DNA of 64,000 bases from Thermodesulfobacteriota bacterium. GTDB taxonomy: Bacteria > Desulfobacterota_D > UBA1144 > Nemesobacterales > UBA2774. A program made the position numbers and the translations under genes. A model generated the notes under the pieces. The model saw only the letters and a list, made by a program, of their open reading frames with translations. It did no database searches and was not told where the DNA came from. The stretch's first letter is position 1. Every line of letters starts with the position of its first letter. The stretch is taken from contig OZ244197.1 in assembly GCA_965216785.1 (NCBI GenBank), positions 192,001 to 256,000 on the forward strand. Direction: 5' to 3'. Positions 5,385 through 26,264 of this stretch are shown here, in pieces.

Positions 5385-7913
5385 TTAATCCAAGAACTCT
5401 TCGAGGTCCCTCAAAACTTTCTCGGCGGGGGCTATGGATTTCGAGCAGTTAGGCAGAGATTCCAAAAAGTACTTTCCGTAGAACTTGGATATAATCCGCG
5501 TGTCCAGAACGAGCACGGCCCCTTTGTCCGTTTTGGTCCTTATGAGCCTGCCGAAACCCTGCTTGAATTTAAGAACCGCGACAGGGAGGCTGTAGTCGGT
5601 AAATGAATTTAATCCCTGGCTCTCCATGTGCTCGACCCTGGCCTCGATAATGGGCTCTGTGGGCACCCTGAATGGGAGCCTCGTGATAATGACCAGGCTA
5701 AGCGCGCTGCCCGGAACATCCACACCTTCCCAGAAACTGTCTGTCGCGAAGAGCACCGAGCTGTCTACTTTCCTGAACTTATCCAGAAGTCTTGCCCTCG
5801 GGAGCACCCCTTGCTTGAGGCACATCATTCCCTCGCTCTCCAATCCCCTGTGGATATTCTGATATACAGTGTCAAGGAGTGAATAGGAGGTGAACAGTAT
5901 TAGCGCGCTTCCGTTCGAGAGTTTTAGGGCATCTGCTATGAGGGGTGAGATGGCTTCCGCATATGAGCTGGAGACAGGCTCGGGCAGATCATCTGGGATG
6001 GCCAGAAGCAGCTGCCTCTTGTAATTAAACGAGGAAGGCAGAATGAGCTCTTTGACCCTGGGCTCGTCCATGAGCCCGAGACCCGTTTTCATGAAATTAA
6101 AGCTCTTTCTTACTGCCATTGTGGCCGAGGTCATAACTACGGTCGAGGCTTTGGTATAGAGCCTTTCCTTTATTATCGGTGAGATATCAAGCGGCGAGAG
6201 TCCAAGCCCCGACAGCACCCCTCCCCTGCCCGTTCTGCCCTCGACCCACCTCACAAAACCGTCGTCCTCAAGACTGATGAAGCTTGAGATCACGTCAGAA
6301 GTATAGTCAAGCTTATTACCCACACCCCTGAATTCGACTATCAGCTTTGCGATATCGTTATCGGATTCATAGTCAAGCAGTATGTCGGTGAAGGCTTTAA
6401 TCTCTTCCTGAAGCTCTTTAAGCCTGATCCTGAGAATCGAGAATTTCTTATCTATCTCGGCCCAGGACTCCCTTCCGAACTCAACATCTGTGAGTCTGAG
6501 ATTGACCTCGTCTTTACCATTTTCTTTCTCGCGGGCGATTGAGAGCGCAAACTCGTATAAGGAATCGAACGCGTCCCTAACGTAGTCCTCAGCAGTATCT
6601 ACCTTGGGTGACAGATTCTGCTCAACGCGCTTTAAGACGTCATTTACAATTCCCTTTTGCAGCTGAGTCACGAGCTTTGCGGCAAGCGAAACGGTGTAGA
6701 AAATTAGCCCTTTGTGCTCACCCTTGCGGCCTTTTCTCTTAAGTCTCCTTAGCACTCGGATAATACCGAACTTGGTGGCCCTCATACCAAAATGGGACGT
6801 GGCCGCGTCTGTAATATGGTGAGCCTCGTCAAAAATGACTCTGTTAAAAGGGGGCAGGATGCCGGCGTCGCTCTTCTCGGACGCCCCCTTGATAGAAAGA
6901 TCTGAAAACAGTAGATGGTGGTTTACGACGAGCACCTGGGCCGAGGCGAGCTCGCGCCTGGATTTAAAGAAGAAGCAGCGAGAGTAATAAGGGCAGCGCG
7001 CCCTGAGACAGCTGTCGCTTTCCGCAGAGACCTTGTCCCATACGCTCTCGGGAGGCGTAAAGCTAAGATCGGACAGCGAGCCGTCCTCTGTGACCTTGGT
7101 CCACTCTAAAATGCTGCCAATGGGGTCAACCTCGTCGTCCTCCGCCATTTCAAAAAGACCGTCTGTGACAGTCTCGGCCCTTAGCAGACATAGATAATTC
7201 GCCATACCCTTTACGAGCGAGTAATTAAAATCCTGATTGAAAGCTTTATGCAGCAGGGGCAGATCTTTATCGATGAGCTGTTCCTGCAGATTAATAGTGT
7301 TGGTAGAAATAACGACCCGCTCTTCATTCTTGAGGGCCCAGCTCACAGCCGGGATCAAATATGAGAGCGTCTTACCCGTCCCGGTGCCCGCTTCCACAAG
7401 CGATATGAGGTTGTCGTTAAAGGCCGAAGTCACAGAGCTGAGCATCTCTACCTGCTCGCCGCGCTCTTCAAACTTCTCTGCCATTACCTGCTCTATTGCA
7501 CCGCCCGGAAGCAGGAATTCCTTTATTTCTTCAGGGTCTAACGGCTCGATCTCTTTTGGAACATAGGGCTCGACTACGACGTACACGCGAGAGGCTTTGT
7601 TGTTGACGATATAAAACCCTATACCCTCGTTCCCGAAGAGGGAAGCAATTTGTAAATCCTGCGCTGAGGGAGTGAGGCGGCCCGAGGGATGGTTATGAAT
7701 TACCACATCGCCAGTCGAAGCAGAGTCGAATATGGCAGGAACCGCGTTTTCATTGCCGCGGGCTACGACGCTTACATCCTCTACAATATAGTTTTCATCT
7801 AAAGAGCCAACAAAAAACACTTCGTTGCCCGAAGCGTTATTTATCTCGGACACGATCCGGCTCTTTGCTTTTTCGGAAAGGATCTCTTTTTCCACGGGAG
7901 ATAAAGCTAACAT
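5385..7913 (-). CDS. dinG: DinG/YoaA-family Fe-S helicase with N-terminal JAB/MPN-like domain
   Basis: EAGTGTGKT, DEAHH, SFWEGVDVPG, QGFGRLIR; Fe-S cysteines NYLC...CLRARCPYYSRC; N-terminal E...HNHPSG..PS..D. Confidence 0.9.
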   Translation of the reverse strand: MLALSPVEKEILSEKAKSRIVSEINNASGNEVFFVGSLDENYIVEDVSVVARGNENAVPAIFDSASTGDVVIHNHPSGRLTPSAQDLQIASLFGNEGIGFYIVNNKASRVYVVVEPYVPKEIEPLDPEEIKEFLLPGGAIEQVMAEKFEERGEQVEMLSSVTSAFNDNLISLVEAGTGTGKTLSYLIPAVSWALKNEERVVISTNTINLQEQLIDKDLPLLHKAFNQDFNYSLVKGMANYLCLLRAETVTDGLFEMAEDDEVDPIGSILEWTKVTEDGSLSDLSFTPPESVWDKVSAESDSCLRARCPYYSRCFFFKSRRELASAQVLVVNHHLLFSDLSIKGASEKSDAGILPPFNRVIFDEAHHITDAATSHFGMRATKFGIIRVLRRLKRKGRKGEHKGLIFYTVSLAAKLVTQLQKGIVNDVLKRVEQNLSPKVDTAEDYVRDAFDSLYEFALSIAREKENGKDEVNLRLTDVEFGRESWAEIDKKFSILRIRLKELQEEIKAFTDILLDYESDNDIAKLIVEFRGVGNKLDYTSDVISSFISLEDDGFVRWVEGRTGRGGVLSGLGLSPLDISPIIKERLYTKASTVVMTSATMAVRKSFNFMKTGLGLMDEPRVKELILPSSFNYKRQLLLAIPDDLPEPVSSSYAEAISPLIADALKLSNGSALILFTSYSLLDTVYQNIHRGLESEGMMCLKQGVLPRARLLDKFRKVDSSVLFATDSFWEGVDVPGSALSLVIITRLPFRVPTEPIIEARVEHMESQGLNSFTDYSLPVAVLKFKQGFGRLIRTKTDKGAVLVLDTRIISKFYGKYFLESLPNCSKSIAPAEKVLRDLEEFLD

Positions 7914-11255: not shown

Positions 11256-13238
11256 ATGAATAAAACTTTACTTACAGTATTTACCGTAATATTGGGCTTT
11301 TACGGATTTTCCGGCGTGCAGGCTTCTGAAGACGATCAGACGCTTAAGAGAAACGGGTATGAGAGAAGTGAATTCAGCATAATAAGAAGTGAGAAAGTAA
11401 ACCCTAAGCTTGCCGAAGTAATCGATGAGATAGACAGGGTAAACGTCAGCAGGGACAGCCTGGGAAAAAGTAATCCGCAAGGGCTGTCAACCCGGCTGGT
11501 TAAGGTGGACTCTGAGGGGATGATCGAAGTTTATATTCACTGCAACGAAGTCGGTGAGGATAATCTTAACCGCTTATTGGATTTAGGCCTCGATACCGAA
11601 GTTATAAACGACGAGCTTAAAATCATTCAGGGATGGCTTCCCCACGACATTATAGAGGAAGCGGCGGAGCTTGGATTTGTCGATAAGATAACCCCGCCAA
11701 GCTACGGTCACACAAGAGTAGGCTCTCTTACCCCAAATGTAGTTTCTGAAATCGGCGCTGATATGGTAATTTCGGAGTTCGGCATAGACGGCTCGGGAGT
11801 TAAAATCGGCGTGATCTCGGACGGTATCGGAAACCTGGCCGCGTCGCAGGCTTCGGGAGACCTTCCCTTTGTGCAAATAGGAAACGCAGGTAGCGGGAAT
11901 GAAGGCACTGCGATGTTAGAGATAATACACGACATAGCGCCCGGGGCTGATCTTGCTTTCCATACCGGGAACAGCACCTTGAGGTTTATAGAGGCAGTCG
12001 AGTTCTTCTGCAATAACGGGGTCGATATAATAGTGGACGATATCGGATACTTATCCGAGCCTTTTTTCCAGGACGGCTCTGTAGCGCAGGCTGCCGCCGA
12101 CGCAGTGAATCAGGGTAAGGTGTTCGTATCCGCAGCCGGAAACGATCAGGACCGCCACTATCAGGCGCTTTATATTGATGTAGACCCGGGCGATGCTGAA
12201 AGCAATAACCACGACTTCGGAGCCGCCGCGGGAGAGGCCAGTACAAACCGCATGTCTTACCTTCTACCCGCAGGCGGAGAGGTAGTAGTAGTGCTACAGT
12301 GGTCGGACCCTTTCGGCGCATCCAGTAATGATTACGACCTGTTTTTGGTTGAGCCCGGAACAACTACCGTAATAGACTCCGGTACTGCCGCTCAAAACGG
12401 AGATGACGATCCGATAGAGTTTGCAGGTGTGAGAAACGACGGAGGCTCATCGGGCATATTTGAGATAGTAATAGATAAATTCAGCGGTGAAGACCAAACT
12501 CTTGAAATTGTTTTTAACGGGAACGGCAATCTTTTGGAATTCAACGTGCCGGAAGATTCCATATACGGCCACCCAGCGCACCCGGACGTGATTGCAACCG
12601 GTGCCACGGACGGGGGGGTTATTGATTTCTTCAGCTCGTTTGGCCCTTCATCAATATTCCATAACCCGGTAGTTACCGTTTCTTCAAGAGTTGCAGGGCC
12701 CTCCTTGAACGCAGCGCCGCTGCTTGAATCCAGACCCAAGCCCGACATTTCCGCTCCAAACAGAATTCCTACGACAGTCCCCGGCTTTTCCAACTTCGCG
12801 GGTACTTCCGCGGCAGCGCCGGTACTGGCAGCAAGCGCGGCTTTAGTGTATCAGGCTGTTGAATTTGCAAACCTCACCCTGGCGAGCAGCGCTCCGGAAT
12901 CGGCGATCGCTGCCAGACAGACACCTGAGGAGATTCTGGATATACTATCAAACACGGCAACAGACATAGGCCCACCCGGATTCGATAATACCTCCGGGGC
13001 AGGTATAGTTGACGCATTCGCTGCAGTACAAGAGGCGCTTCAGGGACTAGATGGACCCGGCGGGGATCCAGGAAGCAGCGGTAATAGTGGCGGAAACGGG
13101 GGGAACGGCGGAGGCGGGTGCTCTCTACTCAGCAGCGATGCAGCGAGCTTAAACGGCACCGGCGCTATGTTAAATATATTAATACTGCTGGTACCTGCGA
13201 TCTTTGTAGCTCTAATTCAAATCAGAAGAAGGATATGA
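11256..13238 (+). CDS. Secreted S8/S53-like serine peptidase with Gly-rich linker and Cys-TM-RRR C-terminal sorting signal
   Basis: Signal peptide; IGVISDG, NEGTAMLEIIHDIAPGA, SAAGND, AGTSAAAP; tail GGGGCS-TM-RRRI. Confidence 0.88.
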   Translation: MNKTLLTVFTVILGFYGFSGVQASEDDQTLKRNGYERSEFSIIRSEKVNPKLAEVIDEIDRVNVSRDSLGKSNPQGLSTRLVKVDSEGMIEVYIHCNEVGEDNLNRLLDLGLDTEVINDELKIIQGWLPHDIIEEAAELGFVDKITPPSYGHTRVGSLTPNVVSEIGADMVISEFGIDGSGVKIGVISDGIGNLAASQASGDLPFVQIGNAGSGNEGTAMLEIIHDIAPGADLAFHTGNSTLRFIEAVEFFCNNGVDIIVDDIGYLSEPFFQDGSVAQAAADAVNQGKVFVSAAGNDQDRHYQALYIDVDPGDAESNNHDFGAAAGEASTNRMSYLLPAGGEVVVVLQWSDPFGASSNDYDLFLVEPGTTTVIDSGTAAQNGDDDPIEFAGVRNDGGSSGIFEIVIDKFSGEDQTLEIVFNGNGNLLEFNVPEDSIYGHPAHPDVIATGATDGGVIDFFSSFGPSSIFHNPVVTVSSRVAGPSLNAAPLLESRPKPDISAPNRIPTTVPGFSNFAGTSAAAPVLAASAALVYQAVEFANLTLASSAPESAIAARQTPEEILDILSNTATDIGPPGFDNTSGAGIVDAFAAVQEALQGLDGPGGDPGSSGNSGGNGGNGGGGCSLLSSDAASLNGTGAMLNILILLVPAIFVALIQIRRRI

Positions 13239-13241
13239 TGT

Positions 13242-14672
13242 ATGAAATTACTCATAATCGGGCTTGACTGCGCAGATCCCGAGCTTGTGTTCGGATGGAA
13301 GGACGAGCTTCCGAATCTGAACAAACTGATGGAGGGCGGTGCTTACGGCCCGCTCCTTTCAACGCACCCACCGATCACAGTGCCCGCATGGGCCGTAATG
13401 ATGAGCGGCAAGGACCCGGGACAGCTTGGTTATTACGGATTCAGGAATAGAAAAGATCATACATACGACGCTTATGGAATTGCAAACGGAAACGCGGTAA
13501 AGGCGGAGCGGGCCTGGGATAGGCTATCGAAAGCAGGCAAAAAAGTAATTCTCCTCGGAGTACCACAGACCTATCCTCCAAAACCCGTTAACGGGTGCGT
13601 AGTGAGCGGGTTCTTAGCGCCCGACACCAACAGTAATTATACATACCCGATCGCGCTAAAAGATGAAATTGAAGAGGCGGCCCCCGGGTACGTTTTAGAT
13701 GTGGAGGACTTTAGAACAGATGATAAAGAGGCGCTGCTTGGGCGTATATACGACAAGACCGAGAAACATTTTAAAGCCGCGAAATATCTTTTGACAAATA
13801 AACCCTGGGATTTTTTCATGCTCGTTGAAATGGGTGTGGACAGGATTCACCATGGATTCTGGAGCTTTATGGACAAGGATCACCCAAAATACGTAGCGGG
13901 CAACCCCTTTGAAGACTCTATAAAGGAATACTATAAATACTGCGACAGGGAGATAGGTGAGCTTTTATCACTAGTAGCCGACGATACAGTGGTTATTGTA
14001 GTTTCCGACCACGGCGCAAGAAAGATGGAAGGCGGTATCTGCTTTAATGAATGGCTTATAAAAGAAGGTTATCTTGCTCTTAAAGACTACCCGAGTGAAC
14101 CGACGCGTTTTGCTGATACTGAAATAGACTGGAGCAGGACCGCTGCCTGGGGAGAGGGCGGATATTACGGAAGATTATTTATGAACGTAAAGGGAAGAGA
14201 ACCCAATGGCACAGTTGAGCCAGCTGATTACGAAAAACTGCGCTCCGAGCTGATCGAGAAACTTGAGGCGATAGAAGACCCCGAGGGCGGGAATATAGGC
14301 ACAAAAGCTCACAGACCAGAGGAGCTATACAAAGAAGTTAACGGTGTGGCGCCTGATCTTATTGTTTATTTCGGGGAGCTTGGCTGGCGCTCTGTAGGGA
14401 GCGTGGGAATGGGCGGTATTCACACATTTGAGAACGACACAGGGTCTGATGAGGCGAACCACGATTGGAACGGGGTATTTATTTTAAATGATATAGGGTG
14501 CAAGCTGGGCAACATAGAGCCCGGGTACAAAGAGGGAATGAAAATATATGATATCGCACCCACGGTGCTTAACCTGTTCGGAATGAAGTCTGATGAAGAG
14601 GTTATCGGAAAGAGCTTAACGAATTATGAAGATAGGGGAATTCTCTCGAAGTTAAGAAGTATATTAGGTTAG
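13242..14672 (+). CDS. Alkaline phosphatase superfamily, nucleotide pyrophosphatase/phosphodiesterase type; no signal peptide
   Basis: IIGLDC, PPITVPAW (Thr nucleophile), DRIHH, VSDHG, ANHD. Confidence 0.88.
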   Translation: MKLLIIGLDCADPELVFGWKDELPNLNKLMEGGAYGPLLSTHPPITVPAWAVMMSGKDPGQLGYYGFRNRKDHTYDAYGIANGNAVKAERAWDRLSKAGKKVILLGVPQTYPPKPVNGCVVSGFLAPDTNSNYTYPIALKDEIEEAAPGYVLDVEDFRTDDKEALLGRIYDKTEKHFKAAKYLLTNKPWDFFMLVEMGVDRIHHGFWSFMDKDHPKYVAGNPFEDSIKEYYKYCDREIGELLSLVADDTVVIVVSDHGARKMEGGICFNEWLIKEGYLALKDYPSEPTRFADTEIDWSRTAAWGEGGYYGRLFMNVKGREPNGTVEPADYEKLRSELIEKLEAIEDPEGGNIGTKAHRPEELYKEVNGVAPDLIVYFGELGWRSVGSVGMGGIHTFENDTGSDEANHDWNGVFILNDIGCKLGNIEPGYKEGMKIYDIAPTVLNLFGMKSDEEVIGKSLTNYEDRGILSKLRSILG

Positions 14673-14746
14673 GCGGTAGAGAAAAAGATTTAGACAATAT
14701 ATAATCAAGAATCGGAATTAACGCATTATCCGGTGCGGCTCGGCAT

Positions 14747-16819
14747 ATGGCAAAGGTCAATAACGACACAAATAGATTGATCCTGATTACCGCCCTCTCA
14801 ATGAGTATAACCTTTGGGCTCCTTGATATCTATATAGGGCTCAAGTCTGGGGGTATGAAAAACCTGAGGATTCCATGGGTAATTATCCCCCTTGCCGTCA
14901 CTACGGGGTTCTATTTCATTGCCTACATTACAAGCTGGTACTTAGTTGTGTCTCGGTTGGTGAGAAGACTCAGGCTGAATATTGAAAACTCCGCTATCGC
15001 AAACGGGTTTTTGATCGGTATCGCAATAATATTGATATCAATGTATTTCGATGTGCTAGCCATAAGAGGATCTATATACAAAATTGTCGGCATTCTTTTT
15101 ATACTTACAGTTTCAACTATTGTATCGATACTGATATATCTGATCCTGACAAAAGTAATAGAGATAAAAAGACCAGCAGTTACAGGAATGAAGGCAAGCC
15201 TGATCATTCCGATAGTACTCTTGGAAGCCTTATTTTTTATAATCATACAGAAGTTCGTTGCGACTCCGGCCGTGATATTTTACGGAACTTATCTTGTTTT
15301 AGTTCTGGCGACAATTTATGCAATTTCCTATATAAACGCTGAAAAGCTAAGGGTACTGAGCTTACTGACGGCGATAGTGCTGCTAATAGTAATTGGAGGC
15401 CCGCTTGCGGTTATCCTAAACCAACAAATATATAACTCAACACCTACAAGCGAGATTAAAACAAATCTCAATTCATCCAAAAGCAGTATTAAGCATGTAA
15501 TCTTAATTACAGTAGATACGCTTAGGACAGACGTGCTTTCTTCATACGGCAGTCAGAATGTACAAACCCCCAACATCGATAGCCTATCGGCAGACGGAGT
15601 ACTGTTTAAAAACGCATATTCATCGGCGCCTTGGACACTCCCCGCGTTCTCTTCAATAATGACAGGGCTTCCGCCAGGAACTCATTTAACCACTAAACCA
15701 AGCTCGAAGCTGCCGGATAAATTCAATACGATTGCCGAGTATATGAAGGGTTCCGGCTACTATACCGGAGCAATTGTCAGAAATATCTTCCTAAGCCCGA
15801 ATTATAACCTGGACCAGGGATTCGCAGATTATTACCATTACCCAAATCATAATAGGTATGTTAAGTCCTTCGGTACGGCGCTTATGTTATCGGCCCTTAA
15901 TAAAAAACTATTGGAAGATGTATCAACCGAAGATATTACAAACAGCGCTATTAACTGGCTTGGAAAACACAGAGACGAAAACTTCTTTTACTGGATTCAT
16001 TACTTTGATCCGCACCAACCCTATGCCCCACCACAGAGATATATTACCGACAGGAGTGAGCCTCCCTCGCGTATCGGGCGGAAATTTGACGGGGCTGGAC
16101 GTATTAGGGGTGGCCACTTTACGGCCACCGCAAGAGAAAAGCAGTGGATAAAAGAGCTGTATGACGCCGAGGTACGTTACGTGGATGAGAATCTAGGAAG
16201 ACTCTTTAAATATTTAAAGGAGTCCGGATTATATGAGGATTCGCTTATTATTTTCACTAGCGACCACGGGGAGGAGTTCTGGGACCATGGAGGTTTCGAG
16301 CACGGTCACGCTCTTTATAACGAAGTGATACAGGTACCTTTGATCATCAAGATGCCGGGTGTTAATCAATCGAGGGAAGAAAATATGAGGGTGAGCACAC
16401 AGAGCCTTAAACGCACAATACTGGACGCAATCGGTATAGAGTATGATAGTGATCGCTTGATTTCCGGATCTTTATACCCGCTTATTCGGGAGGATGGTAC
16501 AGAAATTAGCCAAGAGCCGCTCGTAACCACCGGACTTTTATATTATGAGGATAAAGAATCCATTATTAATGGCGATAGGAAATTCATACGCTCTCTGGTC
16601 TCAAACAAAGAAGAGCTCTATGACTTAATCACCGACCCGCACGAGCAAAACGAGCTAAGTAGCGGTGGGGGGAGTGCCTTAGAAGCCAGACAAATGCTGA
16701 AAGAATACAACGAAAAAGCCAAGAGTCTGGGCTCTGAGTACGGAGTTCAAAGTGCAGAAGAAGTCGTCTTAAGTAAAGAGAAGAAAGAAGAGCTGAAAGC
16801 TTTGGATTATATACAGTAA
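14747..16819 (+). CDS. Membrane-anchored sulfatase-like hydrolase/transferase (about 7 N-terminal TMs)
   Basis: ITVDTLR, SAPWTLPA, HYFDPH, TSDHGEEF, HG..LY; ends ELKALDYIQ. Confidence 0.87.
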   Translation: MAKVNNDTNRLILITALSMSITFGLLDIYIGLKSGGMKNLRIPWVIIPLAVTTGFYFIAYITSWYLVVSRLVRRLRLNIENSAIANGFLIGIAIILISMYFDVLAIRGSIYKIVGILFILTVSTIVSILIYLILTKVIEIKRPAVTGMKASLIIPIVLLEALFFIIIQKFVATPAVIFYGTYLVLVLATIYAISYINAEKLRVLSLLTAIVLLIVIGGPLAVILNQQIYNSTPTSEIKTNLNSSKSSIKHVILITVDTLRTDVLSSYGSQNVQTPNIDSLSADGVLFKNAYSSAPWTLPAFSSIMTGLPPGTHLTTKPSSKLPDKFNTIAEYMKGSGYYTGAIVRNIFLSPNYNLDQGFADYYHYPNHNRYVKSFGTALMLSALNKKLLEDVSTEDITNSAINWLGKHRDENFFYWIHYFDPHQPYAPPQRYITDRSEPPSRIGRKFDGAGRIRGGHFTATAREKQWIKELYDAEVRYVDENLGRLFKYLKESGLYEDSLIIFTSDHGEEFWDHGGFEHGHALYNEVIQVPLIIKMPGVNQSREENMRVSTQSLKRTILDAIGIEYDSDRLISGSLYPLIREDGTEISQEPLVTTGLLYYEDKESIINGDRKFIRSLVSNKEELYDLITDPHEQNELSSGGGSALEARQMLKEYNEKAKSLGSEYGVQSAEEVVLSKEKKEELKALDYIQ

Positions 16820-16872
16820 TAAAAAAAACCGCCAAAACCATTTGTCCTTAGCCCGGGTATATATTACATTTA

Positions 16873-19077
16873 TTGGTTTTATATTCCATGTTGAAAGTAT
16901 TACGTTGTTCGGATATTAGCAGATTGAGAATATTCCTCTTATACCTAGCAATATTAGTATGTATATACACCGTTCAAACCGAGCCAGCGTTTAGCTACAT
17001 AGGCCCTGGAGCGGGATTTGCATTCCTGTCCTCTTTTCTGGTACTTATTCTTACTTTCGCGCTCGCTATGTTTTACCTGCTTTCCTGGCCATTAAGGTTT
17101 TTTCTGAGGAGGATTTTCAAAAAATCCCCAAAAACAAAGACAGATATAAAAAGGGTAATAATAATAGGTCTTGACGGAATGGACCCCGGACTGGCAAAAG
17201 AGTTCATGGACGAGGGTAAACTTCCGAATTTTAAGAAACTTAGTGATGAGGGAACCTTCTCAAAGCTCGGCACTAGCTACCCCTCGATATCACCTGTAGC
17301 TTGGTCATCGTTTATGACAGGCGTTGACCCATCGCATCACAACATTTTCGATTTTATCACACGAGACCCATGCACATATCAGCCGATGCTTACTTCAGCT
17401 GATATAGGGAAGGCCTCTAAAGTGCTCCCGATCGGAAAGTATATGATACCCCTTGGGAAACCCAAGATGCGGCTTCTTAGAAAAAGTCAGCCTTTCTGGA
17501 AAATTCTTGGGAAGTACGGAATATTCAGCTCTATATTACGGGTACCGATCACATTTCCGCCAGAGAAATTTAACGGCGTAATGTTGTCGGGAATGTGCGT
17601 TCCCGATCTGAGAGGATCACAGGGAACATTCTCACACTACACAACTGATAAAGAGAGAACAAACATAGAGACAGGGGGAGAGAGCCGTTTTGTCGAGGTA
17701 AATAACAATATCATAGAAACAGAGCTTGTGGGACCCGAAAACCACCTCGTTAAAAACGGAGGGGAGCTCAAGCTGCCCATAAAAATAAAACTGGATGAAC
17801 AAAACGTTAAAGCTCAAATTGAAATTTCCGATCAAAGCTTTGAGCTTGAGCCAAAAACCTACTCACCCTGGATCAGAATAATATTTAAAGCCGGTCTCGG
17901 AATAAAAGTTCACGGTATTTGCAGGTTCTATATAAATAGCATAGCTCCGGACTTCGACATGTACGTGACTCCGATCAACATCGATCCCGAAGAGCCTGCT
18001 CTACCCATATCACACCCGTTTATATTCTCTGTTTATCTTGCAAAGCTCATAGGCTCTTACGGTACGCTGGGGCTCGCTGAGGATACCTGGGCGCTAAACG
18101 AAGGCGTCATAGACGAGGACGCGTTCCTTAAGCAGTCATACCTACTATACGAAGAGCGGGAAAAGATGTTCCTTAACGCGCTTGAGAAAACCCCAAGAGG
18201 ATTGGTAACTTGCGTATTTGATACTACCGACCGCGTGCAGCATATGTTTTTCCGCTGCCTTGATGCTGAGCACCCCGCGAATAGGGGAAAAGAAGTTAAG
18301 AAGTATAAAAGTGTAATTGAAGAGCTTTACATAAAGATGGACGGGCTGATTGGAAAAGCGCTTGAGAAAGTAGATGAGAATACTGTTCTCGGCGTAATAT
18401 CGGACCATGGATTCACACAGTTCAAAAGGGGCGTGAACCTTAACAGCTGGCTCTATAAAGAAGGCTATTTGGCACTCAGAGAAGGAAACACCACAAGCGG
18501 GGACTGGCTTGAAAATGTGGACTGGGAAAGAACTAAAGCATTTTCGCTTGGACTTGCGGGTATCTTTATTAATAGGAAAGGCAGAGAGGCTAGCGGCATT
18601 GTAGAAGAAGGAGAAGAGCTTCAAACCCTCAAGAATGACATGATTGAAAAGCTTAGCGGATTATTAGACGAAGAAACCGGGGGTATATCCATAATAGAGG
18701 TGCTGGATACCGAGAGGGCTCATTCGGGACCTTATAAATACGATGCGCCTGATCTCCTTGTAGGTTATAATGCAGGATACAGAAGCTCATGGGGATGCGC
18801 AGTCGGGCGAGTGACGGAATCTGTGTTTGAAGATAACACCAAGCACTGGAGCGGAGATCACTGCGTTGATCCGAAAATAGTGCCGGGAGTCTTATTTATG
18901 AACCGTAAGATTTCCAAAGAAAACCCGCACCTAAACGATATGGCTCCTACGGTTCTGGATTTATTTGGCGTAGAGATACCAAAATATATGAAGGGCTCGC
19001 CCCTTATCGGACAAAAAATATCAAATAAGAAAATAGAAACCGGAGAAAAAGAAGAAAGAGAAGCAAAGGCTGTTTAA
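16873..19077 (+). CDS. Membrane-anchored NPP-type alkaline phosphatase superfamily protein (alternative start ATG 16888)
   Basis: Signal-like segment, YIGPGAG plus TM, IIGLDGMDP, PSISPVAW, DRVQH, SDHGF, WSGDH. Confidence 0.87.
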   Translation: MVLYSMLKVLRCSDISRLRIFLLYLAILVCIYTVQTEPAFSYIGPGAGFAFLSSFLVLILTFALAMFYLLSWPLRFFLRRIFKKSPKTKTDIKRVIIIGLDGMDPGLAKEFMDEGKLPNFKKLSDEGTFSKLGTSYPSISPVAWSSFMTGVDPSHHNIFDFITRDPCTYQPMLTSADIGKASKVLPIGKYMIPLGKPKMRLLRKSQPFWKILGKYGIFSSILRVPITFPPEKFNGVMLSGMCVPDLRGSQGTFSHYTTDKERTNIETGGESRFVEVNNNIIETELVGPENHLVKNGGELKLPIKIKLDEQNVKAQIEISDQSFELEPKTYSPWIRIIFKAGLGIKVHGICRFYINSIAPDFDMYVTPINIDPEEPALPISHPFIFSVYLAKLIGSYGTLGLAEDTWALNEGVIDEDAFLKQSYLLYEEREKMFLNALEKTPRGLVTCVFDTTDRVQHMFFRCLDAEHPANRGKEVKKYKSVIEELYIKMDGLIGKALEKVDENTVLGVISDHGFTQFKRGVNLNSWLYKEGYLALREGNTTSGDWLENVDWERTKAFSLGLAGIFINRKGREASGIVEEGEELQTLKNDMIEKLSGLLDEETGGISIIEVLDTERAHSGPYKYDAPDLLVGYNAGYRSSWGCAVGRVTESVFEDNTKHWSGDHCVDPKIVPGVLFMNRKISKENPHLNDMAPTVLDLFGVEIPKYMKGSPLIGQKISNKKIETGEKEEREAKAV

Positions 19078-19108
19078 GTAGACGGTACTGACTTACATAT
19101 CGACCCAA

Positions 19109-21094
19109 ATGATAACTAAAAACTCAATGAACATGGTTTCGGCAATAGCGCTGGTAGTGATACTCAGCATGTGCGTAGTGCTGCAAGGATGCAGCAGCAG
19201 TGCCGACACAACATCTGCTAAAGCCGTGGATGCGGATAAGAAGCTTATTGTGATCGGTTTTGACGGTATGGACCCTAAAATCGTTCGAAAGCTGATAGCC
19301 GAAGGAAAGCTCCCGCATTTTAAGACCTTGAGTGAAACGGGAGATTTTAAAGAGCTCGCTACAAGTATTCCGCCACAGAGCCCTGTTGCGTGGTCAAACT
19401 TCATAACCGGCATGAACCCGGGAGGGCACGGTATATTCGATTTCATTCACAGAGACCCGAAGACCATGTTCCCATATCTGTCAACATCCAAGACCGAAGC
19501 TCCCGAAACAACGATCAGCATTGGTGAATGGGTAATTCCTCTATCAGAGGGAAAAGTGAAGCTGCTACGTCAGGGAAAGGCTTTTTGGGAATATCTTACA
19601 GAGAACGGAGTCACAACAACAATTTTCAGAGTACCTGCAAACTTTCCCACAACCCAAGGCCACGCGCACCAGATCTCGGGAATGGGCACACCCGACATAC
19701 AGGGTACGTATGGAACATTCTCTTACTATACGGACGAGAATGTAGATCGCTTTGAAGACATTTCGGGCGGTGTGGTGTTCCCGGTAAACATTATTAACGA
19801 CAGTTTCAAAGCCGCGCTTCCCGGACCTAAAAACACATTTAAAAAAGACTCACCGGAAGTGAATGTAGAGTTTAGGGTTTATGTAGATCCTGAAAACCCC
19901 GTCGCCAAGATTAGTGTTCAGGATAACGAGATAATCTTAAATGAGGGCGAGTGGAGCAACTGGGTAACCATTGAGTACGAGATAATCCCCTACATCGAGA
20001 AAGCAAACGGAATTGCCCGCTTTTACTTAAAGGAGATAAGACCGAATTTAAAGCTCTATGTAACTCCCGTAAATATAGATCCTAAGTCGCCGGCGCTTCC
20101 GATCTCAAACCCCGAGGGTTATTCAAAAGAGCTTGCGAAGGCAATCGGGCCCTTCTACACTCAGGGAATACCGGAGGACACTAAAGCTCTTTCTGAGGAT
20201 GTGCTTAACGACAAAGAGTTTCTTCACCAGACAGATATAGTATTTGAAGAGGAGCTTAACATGCTCGACTATGAGCTTGAGCGTTTTAGAGCGGGGCTAC
20301 TTTTCTTTTATATCGGAAGAGCGGATCAGCTCTCTCACATGTTCTGGCGCACTATGGACACGGAGCACCCGGCTTATGATGAGGCCCTCAAGCTAAGGGA
20401 AGTAATTGAGAACTCTTACGTGGAAATGGACACTGTGCTTGGAAAAGTATTGGAGAGGATGGATCCCGATACCACACTGATTGTATTGTCGGACCACGGG
20501 TTTGCTCCTTTTTATAGGGCTTTTAACTTAAACACATGGCTTAAAAACGAAGGGTATGTAACTCTTAATGAGAATACCGAAGGCGAGTTCTTTCAAAATG
20601 TAGACTGGCAGAACACAAGAGCTTATGGCGTAGGGTTTAACGGTCTATTTTTGAATCTGAAAGAGAGGGAGCTGAATGGAATAGTAGAGCCCTGGGAAAA
20701 AAACAAGTTACTTGACGAGATTTCCGAGAAGCTTCTTTCAGTAAAAGATCCTAAGAACGGGGAGCAGGTGGTATCGAAAGTATATAAAGCAAAAGACGTG
20801 TATCAGGGCGCGTATGTGAAAGAGGCTCCCGATCTAGTAATTGGTTATAATAAGGGATACAGGGCGTCCTGGGAAACTGTGCTCGGAAGCTTCCCCGAAG
20901 AGACGCTGCGAGATAATAAAGAGAAGTGGAGCGGCGACCACTTGATGGAGGCGGAGCTTGTTCCGGGCATCCTGCTATCGAACAAAAAGATTGTATCCGA
21001 AAATCCCGCACTCTATGATATGGCTCCAACTATATTAGCCGTATTCGGAATACCGAAACAAAAAGGAATGATAGGAACTAACGTTTTAAAATAA
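19109..21094 (+). CDS. NPP-type alkaline phosphatase superfamily lipoprotein, paralog of the upstream gene
   Basis: Lipobox-like LQGC; IGFDGMDP, PPQSPVAW, DQLSH, SDHGF, WSGDH. Confidence 0.87.
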   Translation: MITKNSMNMVSAIALVVILSMCVVLQGCSSSADTTSAKAVDADKKLIVIGFDGMDPKIVRKLIAEGKLPHFKTLSETGDFKELATSIPPQSPVAWSNFITGMNPGGHGIFDFIHRDPKTMFPYLSTSKTEAPETTISIGEWVIPLSEGKVKLLRQGKAFWEYLTENGVTTTIFRVPANFPTTQGHAHQISGMGTPDIQGTYGTFSYYTDENVDRFEDISGGVVFPVNIINDSFKAALPGPKNTFKKDSPEVNVEFRVYVDPENPVAKISVQDNEIILNEGEWSNWVTIEYEIIPYIEKANGIARFYLKEIRPNLKLYVTPVNIDPKSPALPISNPEGYSKELAKAIGPFYTQGIPEDTKALSEDVLNDKEFLHQTDIVFEEELNMLDYELERFRAGLLFFYIGRADQLSHMFWRTMDTEHPAYDEALKLREVIENSYVEMDTVLGKVLERMDPDTTLIVLSDHGFAPFYRAFNLNTWLKNEGYVTLNENTEGEFFQNVDWQNTRAYGVGFNGLFLNLKERELNGIVEPWEKNKLLDEISEKLLSVKDPKNGEQVVSKVYKAKDVYQGAYVKEAPDLVIGYNKGYRASWETVLGSFPEETLRDNKEKWSGDHLMEAELVPGILLSNKKIVSENPALYDMAPTILAVFGIPKQKGMIGTNVLK

Positions 21095-21119
21095 GAACAC
21101 ATAACGGAGGTATTGGAAG

Positions 21120-21320
21120 ATGTTCGGCGGATCTAAGGTAAAACTGGATAAAGACCTCATTGAAAGATCAAAGAAATACGCAGAAGAAGCGGGGTACAGC
21201 TCACTAGAGGAATTCATTACCCATGCGGTGGAAAAGGAGCTGAGAAGCGCTGGCGGTTCTCCTGCTGAGGACGACGAGCAGGTAACAAAGAGGCTCAAAG
21301 GCCTAGGTTATATAGAGTAA
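21120..21320 (+). CDS. Small ribbon-helix-helix (CopG-like) protein with RLKGLGYIE tail
   Basis: GGAGG RBS; KVKLDKDLIER...AGYSSLEEFITHAVEKEL fits an RHH pattern; 66 aa. Confidence 0.75.
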   Translation: MFGGSKVKLDKDLIERSKKYAEEAGYSSLEEFITHAVEKELRSAGGSPAEDDEQVTKRLKGLGYIE

Positions 21321-21350
21321 GTATAGAATTGTACATATATTTGAATATCA

Positions 21351-21502
21351 TTCGAATCAGACAAAAATGAAATAGAATGTCTAAAAAGAGACTTGAATAC
21401 GAAAGTGCCAAATATTAACAAATTGAAATTAGTTGAATTTGATAAGGCGGAATTAGATATGGAGAATATACAAGGCTAAAAATGCTTGGATATATTCAAT
21501 GG
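21351..21502 (+). pseudogene. 3' relic of a fourth sulfatase-like paralog (frameshifted)
   Basis: Translates FESDKNEIECLKRDLNTKVPNINKLKLVEFDKAELDMENIQ, then in the -1 frame RLKMLGYIQ; aligns ungapped with the last 50 aa of 21549..23456; TGG where the paralogs have their stop. Confidence 0.75.
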
Positions 21503-21548
21503 CTTTTCTGGATAGAATTTATATCTATTATATCAAAGAAAATTAAAG

Positions 21549-23456
21549 GTGGGATCTCAATTGAAAAGATTATTGCAATATACATGCTTAGCCATAATAG
21601 CGGGAGTTATAATAGGTTTTATAATTTCTGTTTTACAAATCTCGAGCAATGAGTATATAAACTACGGGGCTTACAATCTCATACTCTACTACCTACAGGA
21701 GAATATTAACAAATACACACTATTGATAGCATGTGCTTCCTTAGTTCTAATTTTGCTGAAGATTGGCTTAGCCAGACTGAGGTTCTTTAAGGGCTCACCT
21801 GTAAGTAAGTTACTAAATCAACGAGTACTCTTATCAGTGCTTATAGCCCTGATAATCGCATACATACTGCAGTCCTATTTCAGCGTTCACTCCATCGGCA
21901 TAATTAAATACCTAAAATCTAGCCCCTTAAATGATCTTCTAGCACAGCTAAGTAGCTCTAAGAAGGAAACGCAGAAAATTTACAACTCAGTCATATATAT
22001 ATCGGGAATTTTATTTATCGTCTTGTGTAGTTATGTTTTACTACGGTTCCAGGTAACCGAAACGGTTTTAAACGGCATAAATAAAATCGCACATTCAAAA
22101 ATTACCACCTATGCCGGCATTGCTTTGATAGCGGTATTGGTAATATTCAATGTATATGTTATCACCTATAAGAATTCATCTACTCCCGATGGCCCCAACG
22201 TTATATTGATCTCTCTGGATACTACAAGAGCAGACCGCCTTAGTTCCTATGGGTACTCTCGAAATACATCTCCGAACATAGATAAACTTGCCGCCCAAGG
22301 AGTGCTTTTTGAAAACGCATATTCACAAGCCCCGTGGACATTACCGGCTATGGCTACTGTTCATACATCTCTTTACCCTACTGAACACGGCGTGATATAT
22401 GGGAATGTGGCGATAAAGGGCAATCTCATCACTCTTGCAGAATATTTGAAAAATAATAATTACAAGACGATGGCTATCACGACTCACTCATTTGTTGACA
22501 GTAACCACGGTTTCTCTCAGGGCTTTGATATATTCGATGAATTGAATCACCGAGGAAATGATGATATCTCTTCGGAAAGAATAAGCCAAAAGGCGATAGA
22601 ACTGATTTCTGATAATAAAGATGACAAGTTTTTCCTATGGGTTCACTACTTTGACCCTCACGCTGCATATATTAACCATGAGGAATACAATTACGGTCAA
22701 AACCCCAATGGGAATTACCCCGACGTTTTGAAGGCCGTCCCATTAAATAATGATGATTATGATCTAAATCCAGAGTTTGTACAATACGTAAACGATGTAT
22801 ATGATGAAGAAGTTTCGTTTACGGATAGGAGTGTCGGTAAAGTAATTGATGCTCTTAGTGACATGGGATTAAAAGAAGATACGGTGATTATTTTAACTGT
22901 TGACCATGGAGAGGAATTATTTGATAGAACCAGGTTTGGCCATGGTAACAACACTTATGAGGAGCTAATTCACGTTCCTCTGATTATTTACGATCCAAGT
23001 CAGAAAGAATTGGCGGGAACAAGAATCAAGCATGCAGTAGAGACGCGGAAAATCCCTAAAACAATTGTTGAGGTCTGCGGAATTGAAAATAGCCATTTTG
23101 GGGGGGAAAATCTATTCGAAATAGCTAAGGGTGATAAAGATTCACAAAGTTATTTCGCATTCAGCGAAGGCAGCAGCACAAGAAGCGACGGTACGATAAA
23201 GCACGCCATCATCGGTAAGAACTGGAAGTTGATTAAAAACCTTGGTGAGAATTCATTCGAATTATATGATCTTGAAAATGACCCAGGAGAAAAGATTAAT
23301 CTCATTGAATCTGAAGAGCCGGAGAATGTGACTATGAGAAACGAGCTTTATTCAGAACTTTCCGGATTTAAAAAAGAACGGCTGGTGGAGTTAGAAAAGG
23401 TAGAATTCACAAAACAAGAGCTGGAGGAGTTGAAAGCACTGGGATACTTGCAATAA
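21549..23456 (+). CDS. Membrane-anchored sulfatase-like hydrolase/transferase
   Basis: About 5 TMs; ISLDTTRAD, QAPWTLPA, HYFDPH, DHGEE; ends ELKALGYLQ; AT-rich. Confidence 0.87.
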   Translation: MGSQLKRLLQYTCLAIIAGVIIGFIISVLQISSNEYINYGAYNLILYYLQENINKYTLLIACASLVLILLKIGLARLRFFKGSPVSKLLNQRVLLSVLIALIIAYILQSYFSVHSIGIIKYLKSSPLNDLLAQLSSSKKETQKIYNSVIYISGILFIVLCSYVLLRFQVTETVLNGINKIAHSKITTYAGIALIAVLVIFNVYVITYKNSSTPDGPNVILISLDTTRADRLSSYGYSRNTSPNIDKLAAQGVLFENAYSQAPWTLPAMATVHTSLYPTEHGVIYGNVAIKGNLITLAEYLKNNNYKTMAITTHSFVDSNHGFSQGFDIFDELNHRGNDDISSERISQKAIELISDNKDDKFFLWVHYFDPHAAYINHEEYNYGQNPNGNYPDVLKAVPLNNDDYDLNPEFVQYVNDVYDEEVSFTDRSVGKVIDALSDMGLKEDTVIILTVDHGEELFDRTRFGHGNNTYEELIHVPLIIYDPSQKELAGTRIKHAVETRKIPKTIVEVCGIENSHFGGENLFEIAKGDKDSQSYFAFSEGSSTRSDGTIKHAIIGKNWKLIKNLGENSFELYDLENDPGEKINLIESEEPENVTMRNELYSELSGFKKERLVELEKVEFTKQELEELKALGYLQ

Positions 23457-23495
23457 TTAATCTGAGTTAATGTAGTCTTCGTAATAAAATCATCT

Positions 23496-25391
23496 ATGAT
23501 TAAAGATATCCAGAACATCATAAAACTTCTGAATTTAGCTGTGATATCGGGTATTGTGTCCGGTCTTTTTTTCGCCTTTGTCCATATTATAAAGAATAGG
23601 TATTTAGATTATGGGGCGTATAATATCGCGCTGCTTGATTCAATAGCGTATATAAAGGATTATCTACTGATATTTTTATTATTCGCTCTGGTTGTATGGA
23701 TTATTAATACCGTACTTCTTCATGTATTCCATAACGAACGATTAAAACGATTCCATGAAAATAATCACCAGAAGAATTTATCCATATCTCTATCTTATTC
23801 AGTAATGTTGGTGTTATTATTAGCATTATTTCTCTATTCCACATACCCGGAAATCATACAGTATTTAAAATCCACTCCACTGGCCAATTCTCTACATAAA
23901 CTAACCAAGTCGATAGAAGAAACTAAAAGGATTTTTATCTTTATAACATCAGTTTCAGGTTTTTTATTCCTCGTCTTGAGTACATATTTATTATCTAAGT
24001 TTAAATTAGCAGATAAAGTTCACAGTCGGTTAATGAGAATCGCCGACTCTGAAGTTACAAAGTCCCTGGGATTCGCGCTTTTGGCATTGGTGATCATATT
24101 AAATATTTTCGTATTCGGATATAAAAAAATAAACAGCCCTAGCGGACCAAACATATTGCTAATTTCTATCGACACGCTGAGGGCGGATCACATCAGCTCT
24201 TATAGCCATTACAGAAAAACAACTCCAAATATAGATAAACTTGCGGATAAAGGAATACTTTTTGAAAATGCTTACTCTCAAGGCCCTTGGACCTATCCAT
24301 CTATGGCCTCAATGCATACTTCTCTGTACCCATCGCAAGTATCTATTTTTAATTTGAACACAAGCATACATAGCGCTCATACGACTTTGGCAGAGTATAT
24401 GAAGAATAATTTTTATAATACTCACGCAATTATTTCGAATATAGTGGTCGGTAAAGCTCGAGGATTCTCTCAGGGTTTCGATATCTTCGATCAGGACCCT
24501 ACTGGAAATGCAAACGACTTAACTTCACCCCTTGTAACAGATCGGGCAATTGAATATCTGACGGAGGTGAAGGGAGATAAATTCTTTCTCTGGCTTCATT
24601 ATATGGACCCGCACCATAAATATGTCCACCACCCTGAATATAATTACAGTGAGGGTTATAGCGGCTCGCTCGGAGATATTTTAAACACCGGATATTTAAC
24701 GAAACAAAAAGAAAACTTAGACGAAGAGGACTTGATATATGTAAAAGACATTTATGACGAGGAGATTTCATTCACGGACCATCACATTGGACTCGTCTTG
24801 AACAAACTAAGCGAACTGGGCCTTTCTGACAATACCATAGTTATAATAACCGCTGACCATGGGGAAGAATTTATGGAAAGAAATAACTTTGGCCATGGAC
24901 AATCCTTGTATCAGGAGCTTATACATGTGCCGCTAATAATCTACGTTCCTAGCGATAAAGAAATTGAACCAAAGAGGGTAAAATCTAGCGTTGAAGTAAG
25001 GAGTATAGCAAGAACGATCCTTGATTTGTGCGGTATCCGCGGTAGCCGCATCCAAGGTAAAAACCTCTTAATCATTGCAGAAGATGAACCAGAGAGTTAT
25101 GCATTCAGTCAAAAGTTAAGAAAACCTAGTAATAGTTTGGAAACAATAATTATGGAAAACTGGAAGCTAATAATAAACCCTCATCTCGGCTCTTATGAAT
25201 TATACGATATGGAAAGTGATCCCGGGGAGCAAAAGAATTTATTTGATTCGGAAGATACAGATAAAACTGTAATAAAGGATTTAATATCTAAGTCTTCTGA
25301 AATTGAAAAAGACAGCGTTTTCGAAACTGTCGAAGTAAATTTAAACGAAGAAGATATAGAAAAATTAAAAGCTCTCGGATATATTCAATAG
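23496..25391 (+). CDS. Membrane-anchored sulfatase-like hydrolase/transferase (tandem paralog)
   Basis: About 5 TMs; ISIDTLRAD, QGPWTYPS, HYMDPH, ADHGEEF; ends KLKALGYIQ; AT-rich. Confidence 0.87.
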   Translation: MIKDIQNIIKLLNLAVISGIVSGLFFAFVHIIKNRYLDYGAYNIALLDSIAYIKDYLLIFLLFALVVWIINTVLLHVFHNERLKRFHENNHQKNLSISLSYSVMLVLLLALFLYSTYPEIIQYLKSTPLANSLHKLTKSIEETKRIFIFITSVSGFLFLVLSTYLLSKFKLADKVHSRLMRIADSEVTKSLGFALLALVIILNIFVFGYKKINSPSGPNILLISIDTLRADHISSYSHYRKTTPNIDKLADKGILFENAYSQGPWTYPSMASMHTSLYPSQVSIFNLNTSIHSAHTTLAEYMKNNFYNTHAIISNIVVGKARGFSQGFDIFDQDPTGNANDLTSPLVTDRAIEYLTEVKGDKFFLWLHYMDPHHKYVHHPEYNYSEGYSGSLGDILNTGYLTKQKENLDEEDLIYVKDIYDEEISFTDHHIGLVLNKLSELGLSDNTIVIITADHGEEFMERNNFGHGQSLYQELIHVPLIIYVPSDKEIEPKRVKSSVEVRSIARTILDLCGIRGSRIQGKNLLIIAEDEPESYAFSQKLRKPSNSLETIIMENWKLIINPHLGSYELYDMESDPGEQKNLFDSEDTDKTVIKDLISKSSEIEKDSVFETVEVNLNEEDIEKLKALGYIQ

Positions 25392-25436
25392 GTATTTAAA
25401 ACACTCGCTTAATAAAGTTATGCCCTAGACTAAAAT

Positions 25437-26264
25437 ATGTGGTATTTAAATCTCGCAATAAGCAGCTTTTTCGATCTACTAATAGCGCCGTTTAAGAATC
25501 TGAACCCGCTATGGTCCCTGACGTTTATGTCCCTGCTCATAGGGATATTGATGCTTTTGATATTCAGATACACGTCAAATCAGGAAGCCATAAGAAAAAC
25601 TAAGGATAAAATCAGGGCATATATATTCGAGCTCAGGCTGTTTAAGGACGAGCTTGGTATTGTGCTATCCGCGCAGAAAAACATATTCTCTTACAACATG
25701 AAATATATATCATACGCTCTCAAGCCAATGCTCTTTATGATAGTGCCGCTCGCTATAGTATTGATACAGCTCGAGGGATGGTATGGGTATAAGGCACTTA
25801 CTCCCCAAGAGTCCGCCGTCGTGTCACTTAAACTGTCCGAGGGCGATACGGAGTTGATAAACAGCGTTACTATGACAGCTTCACCAGGGCTTGAGATTGA
25901 CTCTCCCGCACTAAGAATTCAAAGTGAAAAGGAAGTTAACTGGAAGATCCGGGCAAAGGAATTGGGCATCCATAATCTTACCTTCAATGTAGATGATTAC
26001 TCGTTTGATAAAGAAGTTGTTGTATCGGACAAGGGACTTAAACGCATAACACCGGCTTCATTTAGATCAGAGCTCTGGAATTTTGTTCTTAATCCGGGAG
26101 GGAAAGCACTGCCCGACAATCCTTACGTCGAAGAAATAGACGTCAGCTACCCACTGAACTCTATTAAAGTTTACGGATGGAGCACACACTGGCTTGTGGT
26201 GATATTCGTTCTTTCTATAGTATTCGGATTCGCTCTGAAGGGACTATTTAAGGTCGAGATTTAA
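25437..26264 (+). CDS. Membrane protein with DUF106/EMC3/TMCO1 (Oxa1 superfamily)-like architecture and an inserted soluble domain
   Basis: Amphipathic N-helix, TM1, charged coiled-coil, KPM..MIVP TM2, ~130-aa beta-rich insert, HW..F.LS TM3; family assignment by pattern only. Confidence 0.6.
   Translation: MWYLNLAISSFFDLLIAPFKNLNPLWSLTFMSLLIGILMLLIFRYTSNQEAIRKTKDKIRAYIFELRLFKDELGIVLSAQKNIFSYNMKYISYALKPMLFMIVPLAIVLIQLEGWYGYKALTPQESAVVSLKLSEGDTELINSVTMTASPGLEIDSPALRIQSEKEVNWKIRAKELGIHNLTFNVDDYSFDKEVVVSDKGLKRITPASFRSELWNFVLNPGGKALPDNPYVEEIDVSYPLNSIKVYGWSTHWLVVIFVLSIVFGFALKGLFKVEI

Follow-up and report, generated by a model that had tools for sequence, protein, structure and literature searches.

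LtaS, EptA, CptA and YejM combine a Thr nucleophile with an N-terminus of several transmembrane (TM) helices and an outward-facing domain, and they draw on lipid donors, with LtaS and EptA carrying phosphoglycerol and phosphoethanolamine. In a second kind of system, the group to be exported travels on protein tyrosines. DltX and PatA are tyrosine shuttles that carry acyl groups across membranes, where, in DltB-DltX-DltD and PatA-PatB, an invariant terminal tyrosine lies between inner and outer enzymes and the outer enzyme then uses a Ser to hand the group to an envelope polymer (PMC12148441). For sulfate, aryl sulfotransferases independent of 3′-phosphoadenosine 5′-phosphosulfate (PAPS), such as E. 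coli AST and Cpz4, transfer sulfuryl groups in the periplasm from aryl sulfate donors (PMC13426309). The sulfatase-like proteins Agl30 (VNG1056C) and Agl31 (VNG1057C) of Halobacterium salinarum, members of the alkaline phosphatase (AP) superfamily, are, on the basis of deletions, assigned a role as N-glycan sulfotransferases (PMC11980604), and deletion of agl7 in Haloferax volcanii leads to loss of sulfation (PMC3892788). The main text on Agl30 and Agl31 gives no donor route, with the terms "donor", "PAPS" and "in vitro" absent from it (PMC11980604), and "alkaline phosphatase" does not occur in a review of polysaccharide sulfotransferases (PMC11625862). Here, we describe a nine-gene locus (g1 to g9) in a stretch of 64,000 nucleotides (the window; contig OZ244197.1, positions 192,001 to 256,000) from a Thermodesulfobacteriota bacterium, built around a core of g4, g5, g6 and g9. 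This core is new as a system, in that tests of family membership file it under no known one. For its mechanism we tentatively favor, at a little under an even chance, a sequence-based reading in which it would relay sulfuryl groups outward on tyrosines, without a canonical sulfotransferase, onto surface glycans.

The analyzed genome (G000) is one 3.12-Mb contig (C1) and is 92% complete, and the closest relatives of g5 are labelled Candidatus Dadabacteria (91% identity). As first annotated, the nine genes are co-oriented and closely spaced, with gaps of 3, 74, 53, 31, 25, 228, 39 and 45 nt. Three encode enzymes of the nucleotide pyrophosphatase/phosphodiesterase (NPP) type and three encode sulfatase-like enzymes, here termed clients:

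11256..13238, + strand: g1, an S8-family protease (PF00082, E 1e-14) with a C-terminal tail resembling a sorting signal (Gly-rich-Cys, TM, basic), 3 nt before g2
13242..14672, + strand: g2, a signal-less NPP-type enzyme with Thr46 and ligands D9, D200, H204, D256, H257 and H407, without an LGY tail
14747..16819, + strand: g3, a sulfatase-like client of about seven TM helices, with WTLPA (Thr297), the tail LKALDY and a catalytic domain predicted to be periplasmic
16873..19077, + strand: g4, core, NPP-type (Ser140), with a signal peptide, YIGPGAG, one TM helix, a basic stretch and a domain predicted to be cytoplasmic
16996..17016, + strand: the YIGPGAG motif of g4 (Tyr42), a predicted new N-terminus on the outer face
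19109..21094, + strand: g5, core, a lipoprotein of the NPP type (Ser91) with the full ligand set, predicted to be periplasmic, 42% identical to g4
21120..21320, + strand: g6, core, a 66-aa protein resembling ribbon-helix-helix (RHH) proteins, with the invariant tail L59-x-G61-L62-G63-Y64
21351..21499, + strand: a relic, the frameshifted C-terminus of a lost fourth client, with an LGYIQ tail at its end
21549..23456, + strand: g7, a sulfatase-like client of five TM helices, with WTLPA (Thr264), an LGY tail and a low GC content of 0.39
23496..25391, + strand: g8, a sulfatase-like client of five TM helices, with WTYPS (Thr266), an LGY tail and a low GC content of 0.36, 42% identical to g7
25437..26264, + strand: g9, core, a membrane protein related to DUF106 and Oxa1, with a coiled coil and an inserted immunoglobulin (Ig)-like beta domain

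The relic had also been noticed beforehand, and the remnant in the 228-nt gap indeed matches a sulfatase-like C-terminus, with a best score of 25.8 bits that none of 100 shuffles reached (maximum 21.2). For g4, an alternative start is possible at an ATG five codons downstream. Spacing is what argues for co-transcription of the nine genes, because a scan of the locus for promoters (37 against 31.5 +/- 5.7 in shuffles) and terminators (19 against 14.3 +/- 3.5) gave no signal.

Compared with the described systems, the clients share with LtaS, EptA, CptA and YejM the multi-TM N-terminus and the Thr-nucleophile domain, predicted to face outward, but their scores against these models are weak (24-48 bits against cut-offs of 404-1250; 48 bits against 900 for CptA), and members of those families work without the core module. 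The likeness to Agl30 and Agl31 is at the level of the family, with an AP-like core (IPR017850) and sulfatase-like best matches in common. As with DltX and PatA, an invariant terminal tyrosine appears to lie between predicted inner and outer enzymes, with its covalent loading only proposed. Unlike in those systems, there is no MBOAT or SGNH family match and no FXYXXF motif at the locus; instead there are two tyrosine motifs, LxxLGY and YIGPG, a proposed sulfuryl cargo, and an Oxa1-like protein in place of the MBOAT funnel. A sulfotyrosine would be an aryl sulfate donor of the kind used by AST and Cpz4, which, however, belong to an unrelated enzyme family and take their sulfuryl group from small molecules, not from a tyrosine on a protein. 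The g4-g5-g6-g9 module was not seen in the haloarchaeal loci viewed, and no description of it was found in a literature search that lay mostly outside subscription journals.

The first-pass annotation had taken the nine genes for a single system and had staked that view on their occurring together in other genomes. The core does so. A genome scan with g5, in which the best 80 of 88 confirmed stretches gave 76 loci (many on short contigs), places g4, g6 and g9 all beside g5 in 42 of the 76 loci, which span several phyla (Dadabacteria, Nitrospinota, Acidobacteriota, Bacteroidota, Armatimonadota, Planctomycetota, Lentisphaerales and Aminicenantes are represented). Eight or more named lineages keep the order g4-g5-g6-g9. 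The nine genes do not hold together in this way: of the 76 loci, 57 have g9, 54 g4, 48 g6, 30 a client, 26 g2, 16 another paralog of roughly 435 aa (N435) and 13 g1, the number of clients varies, and a g2 ortholog occurs in three of 35 core-bearing Acidobacteriota (at most 13 candidates scored per genome). A conserved nine-gene unit is thus rejected on these counts. As read from the sequences, the locus is layered, with a core, a lineage-specific entry enzyme, expandable clients (g7, g8 and the relic) and a protease found in Dadabacteria only. Every one of the 13 loci bearing g1 has the Dadabacteria g2-g3-g4 order, and g1, an add-on restricted to that lineage, is possibly a substrate or passenger. 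Judging from gene order, N435 appears to take the place of g2 in other lineages. Within the order, the same 12 of 31 genomes carry g2, g4/g5, full-length g9 and clients (these being kin, not independent cases); outside the 12, one genome carries a broken 53-residue g9 fragment and another weaker g2-like paralogs, and in one genome with the core an additional tailed client lies at another site. The core is present in 35 of 121 sampled Acidobacteriota genomes, and the g9 family comprises 1,301 clusters at E 1e-30 or better. In addition, g5 homologs stand without g4, g6 and g9 in the long loci L023, L025, L026, L039, L040, L041, L044 and L055, where, as a side reading, this periplasmic paralog may have a separate use.

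The three NPP-type enzymes g2, g4 and g5 score above the Pfam cut-off for PF01663, carry the two-metal ligands, and have a Thr or Ser nucleophile, assigned by its position in the AP-superfamily motif. The fold was modelled for g4 (predicted local distance difference test, pLDDT, 87), with residues 36-45, before a long helix, at low confidence. The best structural matches of the model are NPP (Xanthomonas 2GSN/7N1S), ENPP1-6 and phosphonoacetate hydrolase, at about 12% identity. While the fold and ligands are those of NPPs, g4 and g5 differ from them in a large beta insert, and the five subfamilies are tied to sulfate activation. In a quick tree, g2, g4, g5, N435 and a set of soluble, tailed NPP-like proteins form five clades in which g4 and g5 are sisters, with long-branch warnings on N435. 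Homologs of g4 share an N-terminus that runs from a signal peptide and an A-x-A-type site through Y[IV]GP[GK]AG, a hydrophobic helix and a basic stretch to the catalytic domain. The Y[IV]GP tyrosine is present in 49 of 49 g4 homologs with an intact N-terminus (47 of 50 matched directly, two more carry it upstream of mis-called starts, and one is truncated by the contig end). At the DNA level, the YIGPG pattern matches 31 of 35 g9-bearing Acidobacteriota against two of 86 others, with 11 genomes matched by a reversed control; of three extra matches in Acidobacteriota, the two inspected are chance and the third is in G105. Stand-alone YIGPG micro-proteins beside sulfotransferases were not recovered: of 11 matches in a search of shorter proteins, six have PF01663 and all lack a sulfotransferase domain, and the Atlas gave no usable match. 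By the positive-inside rule, we infer that the g4 tyrosine lies outside and the enzyme inside. Homologs of g5 commonly have twin-arginine-like signals. The earlier assignment of the locus to cytoplasm, membrane and periplasm can be kept in a refined form, with the catalytic domain of the TM-anchored g4 predicted to be cytoplasmic.

With complete two-metal ligand sets and structural matches of this kind, phosphoryl chemistry has to be weighed, in which the NPP-type enzymes would clear adenosine 3′,5′-bisphosphate (PAP), adenosine 5′-phosphosulfate (APS) or nucleotide by-products, or phosphorylate the envelope, and nearby sulfate genes would be upstream metabolism only. However, clean-up needs neither paralogs on both faces of the membrane, nor an Oxa1-like protein, nor two invariant tyrosines. 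We regard this explanation as improbable, and return to it below with the sulfate operons.

The clients g3, g7 and g8 have PF00884 as their best model, at 155-165 bits against a cut-off of 25. Formylglycine sulfatases carry [CS]xPxR at the nucleophile. This motif is absent throughout g3, g7 and g8, and because WT[LY]P[AS] stands in its place, the clients are read as Thr-nucleophile enzymes, not formylglycine sulfatases. On this ground a catabolic formylglycine-sulfatase locus is rejected, as the first-pass annotation had argued from the neighborhood: family scans find no formylglycine-generating enzyme, TonB receptor, glycoside hydrolase or sugar transporter flanking the locus. An MFS/Sugar_tr gene lies 25 kb away, and the formylglycine-generating enzyme of the genome adjoins a separate sulfatase-family gene (C1:1497824-1500516). 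There are five hydrophobic segments in g7, five in g8 and about seven in g3, with loop charges only partly clear; given a cytoplasmic N-terminus, the catalytic domain and tail of the clients are predicted to lie outside. Elsewhere, tailed clients often have a single TM helix or lack one altogether. That the clients score best against sulfatases is also what would be expected of inward scavenging, in which periplasmic clients would cleave sulfate or phosphate off its esters and the relay would import the group, possibly supplying APS or PAPS without ATP sulfurylase. None of them, though, has [CS]xPxR, and the surrounding genes at related loci are mostly biosynthetic glycan genes, even if GH39 and heparinase-like genes flank L028.

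A C-terminal LGY-type tail is carried by the clients and by g6 of the core. The strict pattern LxxL[GD]Y occurs in four of 13,591 six-frame open reading frames (ORFs) of the genome, namely g3, g6, g7 and g8, and a looser pattern in three of 2,664 ORFs of at least 150 aa, all three at this locus; because the genome-wide matches fall only here, the tail is not a chance feature. Among homologs, it is present in 33 of 39 Thr-sulfatase-like proteins, 13 of 15 soluble NPP-like proteins, 54 of 56 RHH proteins and 10 of 13 CysC, and in one of 102 g2, none of 51 g4, none of 68 g5, none of 18 N435 and none of 11 Sat, counts that run high because tail-bearing ORFs were favored when overlapping ORFs were resolved. 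CysD and DUF2061 proteins also bear it, the latter as membrane proteins in core or cysC loci (L028:7204-7503, L043, L047), and four peptides after g2 homologs consist of little more than an acidic stretch and LGY (L085:7911-8111, L086:2367-2615, L094:6380-6622, L096:4613-4750). Tail-less enzymes and tailed partners are thus predicted on both sides of the membrane, and this symmetry is why we read g2, N435 and g5 as enzymes that would bind or load the tail, and assign the membrane crossing to g4 together with g9. The same tail could serve another form of envelope sulfation, in which LGY would be a docking tag that brings CysC, CysD and the clients to the tail-less hub enzymes, g9 a dedicated insertase or scaffold for g4 and the multi-TM clients, and the sulfate carried by a lipid or small molecule, much as LtaS and EptA have their groups carried. 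On CysC and CysD, a docking tag would make natural sense for channelling substrates, g9 has a relative in the YidC-like MJ0480, and the clients, with Thr nucleophiles, five to seven TM helices and weak matches to LtaS, EptA, CptA and YejM, would suit it. Peptides that are nearly tail only, however, would bring no partner to the dock, the model leaves g4 with an exposed, invariant N-terminal tyrosine that has no role, and the many tailed clients with at most one TM helix lack a lipid-binding membrane domain. We consider this arrangement rather unlikely, though the most serious of the alternatives.

For g6, there is a weak match to NikR (E 0.003), with no Pfam model above cut-off, and its nearest annotated Atlas cluster (0.88) has PF01402 on 27% of members. 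Its invariant LGY suggests, from sequence, a function beyond DNA binding, and we propose that g6 is a cytoplasmic carrier or docking peptide. The early description of g9 as DUF106-like stands at the level of profiles: the g9 alignment profile, over residues 6-118, matches the DUF106 protein MJ0480 (5C8J) at E 8.9e-8, while g9 alone has no Pfam match, and PF01956 is found on two of 120 g9 homologs among the matches listed. The g9 model (pLDDT 93) consists of a coiled coil and the inserted beta domain. Its whole-chain matches include 7tut_8 of the multipass translocon (Z 8.8), a chain which we take to be TMCO1, and YidC (3wo7_A, Z 7.1), scores in the ambiguous range for helical proteins; Foldseek returns matches to the Ig-like beta domain only. 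By profile, g9 is homologous to the archaeal MJ0480, set with the Oxa1/YidC/EMC3/TMCO1 superfamily, but, unlike MJ0480, it is bacterial, has the Ig-like insert, and sits in a fixed enzyme cassette, not among general protein biogenesis genes.

Evidence on the cargo comes from co-occurrence with cysC, sat and glycosyltransferase genes, the comparison first proposed as a check on the locus. Sat is present in 34 of 35 g9-bearing Acidobacteriota against 38 of 86 others (Fisher p 8e-9, with kin not independent), or in 33 of 34 leaving out the unpublished G083; for Sat or CysD, the figures are 34 of 35 against 53 of 86. Within the 76 g5 loci there are CysC in 10, Sat in five, CysD/CysN in one, PAPS sulfotransferase in five and DUF2061 in six, from a Pfam scan of neighbors that covered 127 representatives, with about 66 further ones outside it. 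An independent scan of 80 metagenome loci with g2 finds Sat, CysC or CysNC in 24 (16 of the 50 loci of at least 5 kb), and genes for GT4, GT2 and Wzx-type proteins appear repeatedly near g2 homologs. Four of these g2 loci encode Sat-g2 fusions of about 840-930 aa (L129:1671-4262, confirmed by Pfam, L133, L134 and L151), and a fifth fusion lies in a core-bearing genome (L171:7355-9997). Among loci selected for having Sat or CysD close by, L179-L181 are co-oriented cysQ-RHH-sat-cysC-N435-g4-g5-(g6)-g9-client operons and L183 is a cysD-cysN-N435-core operon. The L179-L181 operons hold sat and cysC and have no match to two PAPS-sulfotransferase queries, which tells against phosphoryl chemistry, as does the presence in them of CysQ-like genes, presumably encoding a PAP phosphatase, that would already do the clean-up. 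The haloarchaeal link recurs here: the best plasmid matches of g8 are haloarchaeal sulfatase-like proteins, of which the Halopiger one has an LGY tail, and plasmid pHALXA01 of Halopiger xanaduensis (L175, NC_015658.1) encodes tailed clients, a tail-less N435, three GT4 genes and a tailed CysD-like protein (annotated as "PAPS reductase family", 28% identical to the CysD of L048), whose tail is much like the bacterial LGY. By its sequence, this plasmid bears the cytoplasmic half of the system among GT4 genes. The original choice between a sulfo- and a phospho-group relay is accordingly tilted strongly toward sulfate by the Sat links, and a relay across the membrane fits the opposite topologies predicted for g4 and g5. 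Sulfate is the probable cargo, in our judgement with good confidence, and an outward, biosynthetic direction is somewhat less certain yet still likely.

The family to which G000 belongs presents a gap in this picture. CysC is found in 18 of 19 genomes of the family and in 30 of 31 of the order, even those of 1.2-1.4 Mb (G000:C1:2319181-2319867 in the analyzed genome). G000 also has three canonical sulfotransferase-family genes and, at C1:1304401-1306250, a PiT-like permease gene beside an APS-reductase-like (PF01507) gene, without an ATP sulfurylase gene nearby. Since these genes and core-less relatives share it, the donor gap is not specific to the core, and the core as an explanation of the orphan CysC is rejected on the same ground. 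In 14 relatives, the genes next to CysC were screened for one that could stand in for ATP sulfurylase, and just housekeeping and glycan neighbors were found. An unrecognized APS source in the order or family is possible. Separately, a tblastn search with a CysN query gave two identical matches, at C1:21551 and C1:2927663, which are likely duplicate EF-Tu genes, not CysN. The lack of ATP sulfurylase in the family is compatible with phosphoryl chemistry, and a family that keeps CysC, with an APS-reductase-like gene in G000, in genomes without Sat or CysD would likewise agree with scavenging. Against the latter, seven core-less family members are also without Sat and with CysC, and elsewhere the core goes with the presence of Sat, not its absence; inward scavenging is, we judge, very improbable.

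The outward tyrosine relay that we tentatively favor could be hypothesized to proceed in five steps, all inferred from gene order, catalytic residues, tyrosine invariance, the split between tailed and tail-less proteins and the sulfate linkage. First, g2 (elsewhere N435) would use PAPS or APS as donor and place the sulfuryl group on its own Thr or Ser. Then, g2 or N435 would load the LGY tyrosine of g6, forming an aryl sulfate. Third, the cytoplasmic domain of g4 would take the sulfuryl group and hand it to its own N-terminal tyrosine, which would span the membrane via a hydrophilic groove that g9, being Oxa1-like, is expected to have. In the periplasm, g5 would take the group and load the LGY tails of g3, g7 and g8, and finally each client would use its Thr to sulfate one particular site of a glycan or glycoprotein in the envelope. 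That the tyrosines act as covalent carriers is itself close to, but below, an even bet. The wider form of the proposal, a cross-phylum export line in which sulfuryl groups, handed between AP-fold enzymes on two kinds of tyrosine tip, would cross an Oxa1-family groove diverted from its role in protein insertion, a large class of LGY "sulfatases" including the haloarchaeal ones would be sulfotransferases, and Dadabacteria would be fed by an unrecognized APS source, is doubtful as a whole.

Several observations weigh against the relay. The NPP-like two-metal sites and fold of g2, g4 and g5 are those of enzymes known for phosphoryl chemistry, and all topologies are predictions from hydropathy and charge. 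The tail counts are biased upward, and the tail on CysC and CysD is equally explicable by docking as by a carrier role. Eleven of the 76 g5 loci, several of them long, have no g4, g6 or g9 nearby. The proposed entry enzyme g2 is no obligate partner of the core, because g9 occurs in none of 80 g2-centred loci and g2 in so few of the core-bearing Acidobacteriota. As for the donor, Sat is found in none of the 19 genomes of the family, CysD in none of the 31 of the order and PF09830 nowhere in G000, and the CysC of the family is without an LGY tail and unlinked to the core. Finally, a Pfam scan finds no glycosyltransferase in the locus of this window.

Two neighboring features deserve mention. The C-terminal end of g1 (GGGC followed by a hydrophobic helix and then a basic tail, resembling a sorting signal) is shared with the ORFs at G000:C1:118603-119787 and 2188852-2190246; g1 itself has no NCBIfam match and reads EGT where subtilisins have HGT. 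Upstream in the window, at 5385-7913 on the - strand, lies a gene for a DinG/YoaA-type helicase with a RadC-like JAB domain at its N-terminus.

Sulfation in the periplasm or at the surface needs a donor across the membrane, and for this the locus offers a parts list with two tyrosines that can be changed by point mutation, in a core module that is common in uncultured lineages. If the relay is true, it would be a new enzymatic route to sulfated glycans and would give an Oxa1-family protein a non-insertase job, and many metagenome "sulfatases" now counted as degradative would be biosynthetic transferases.

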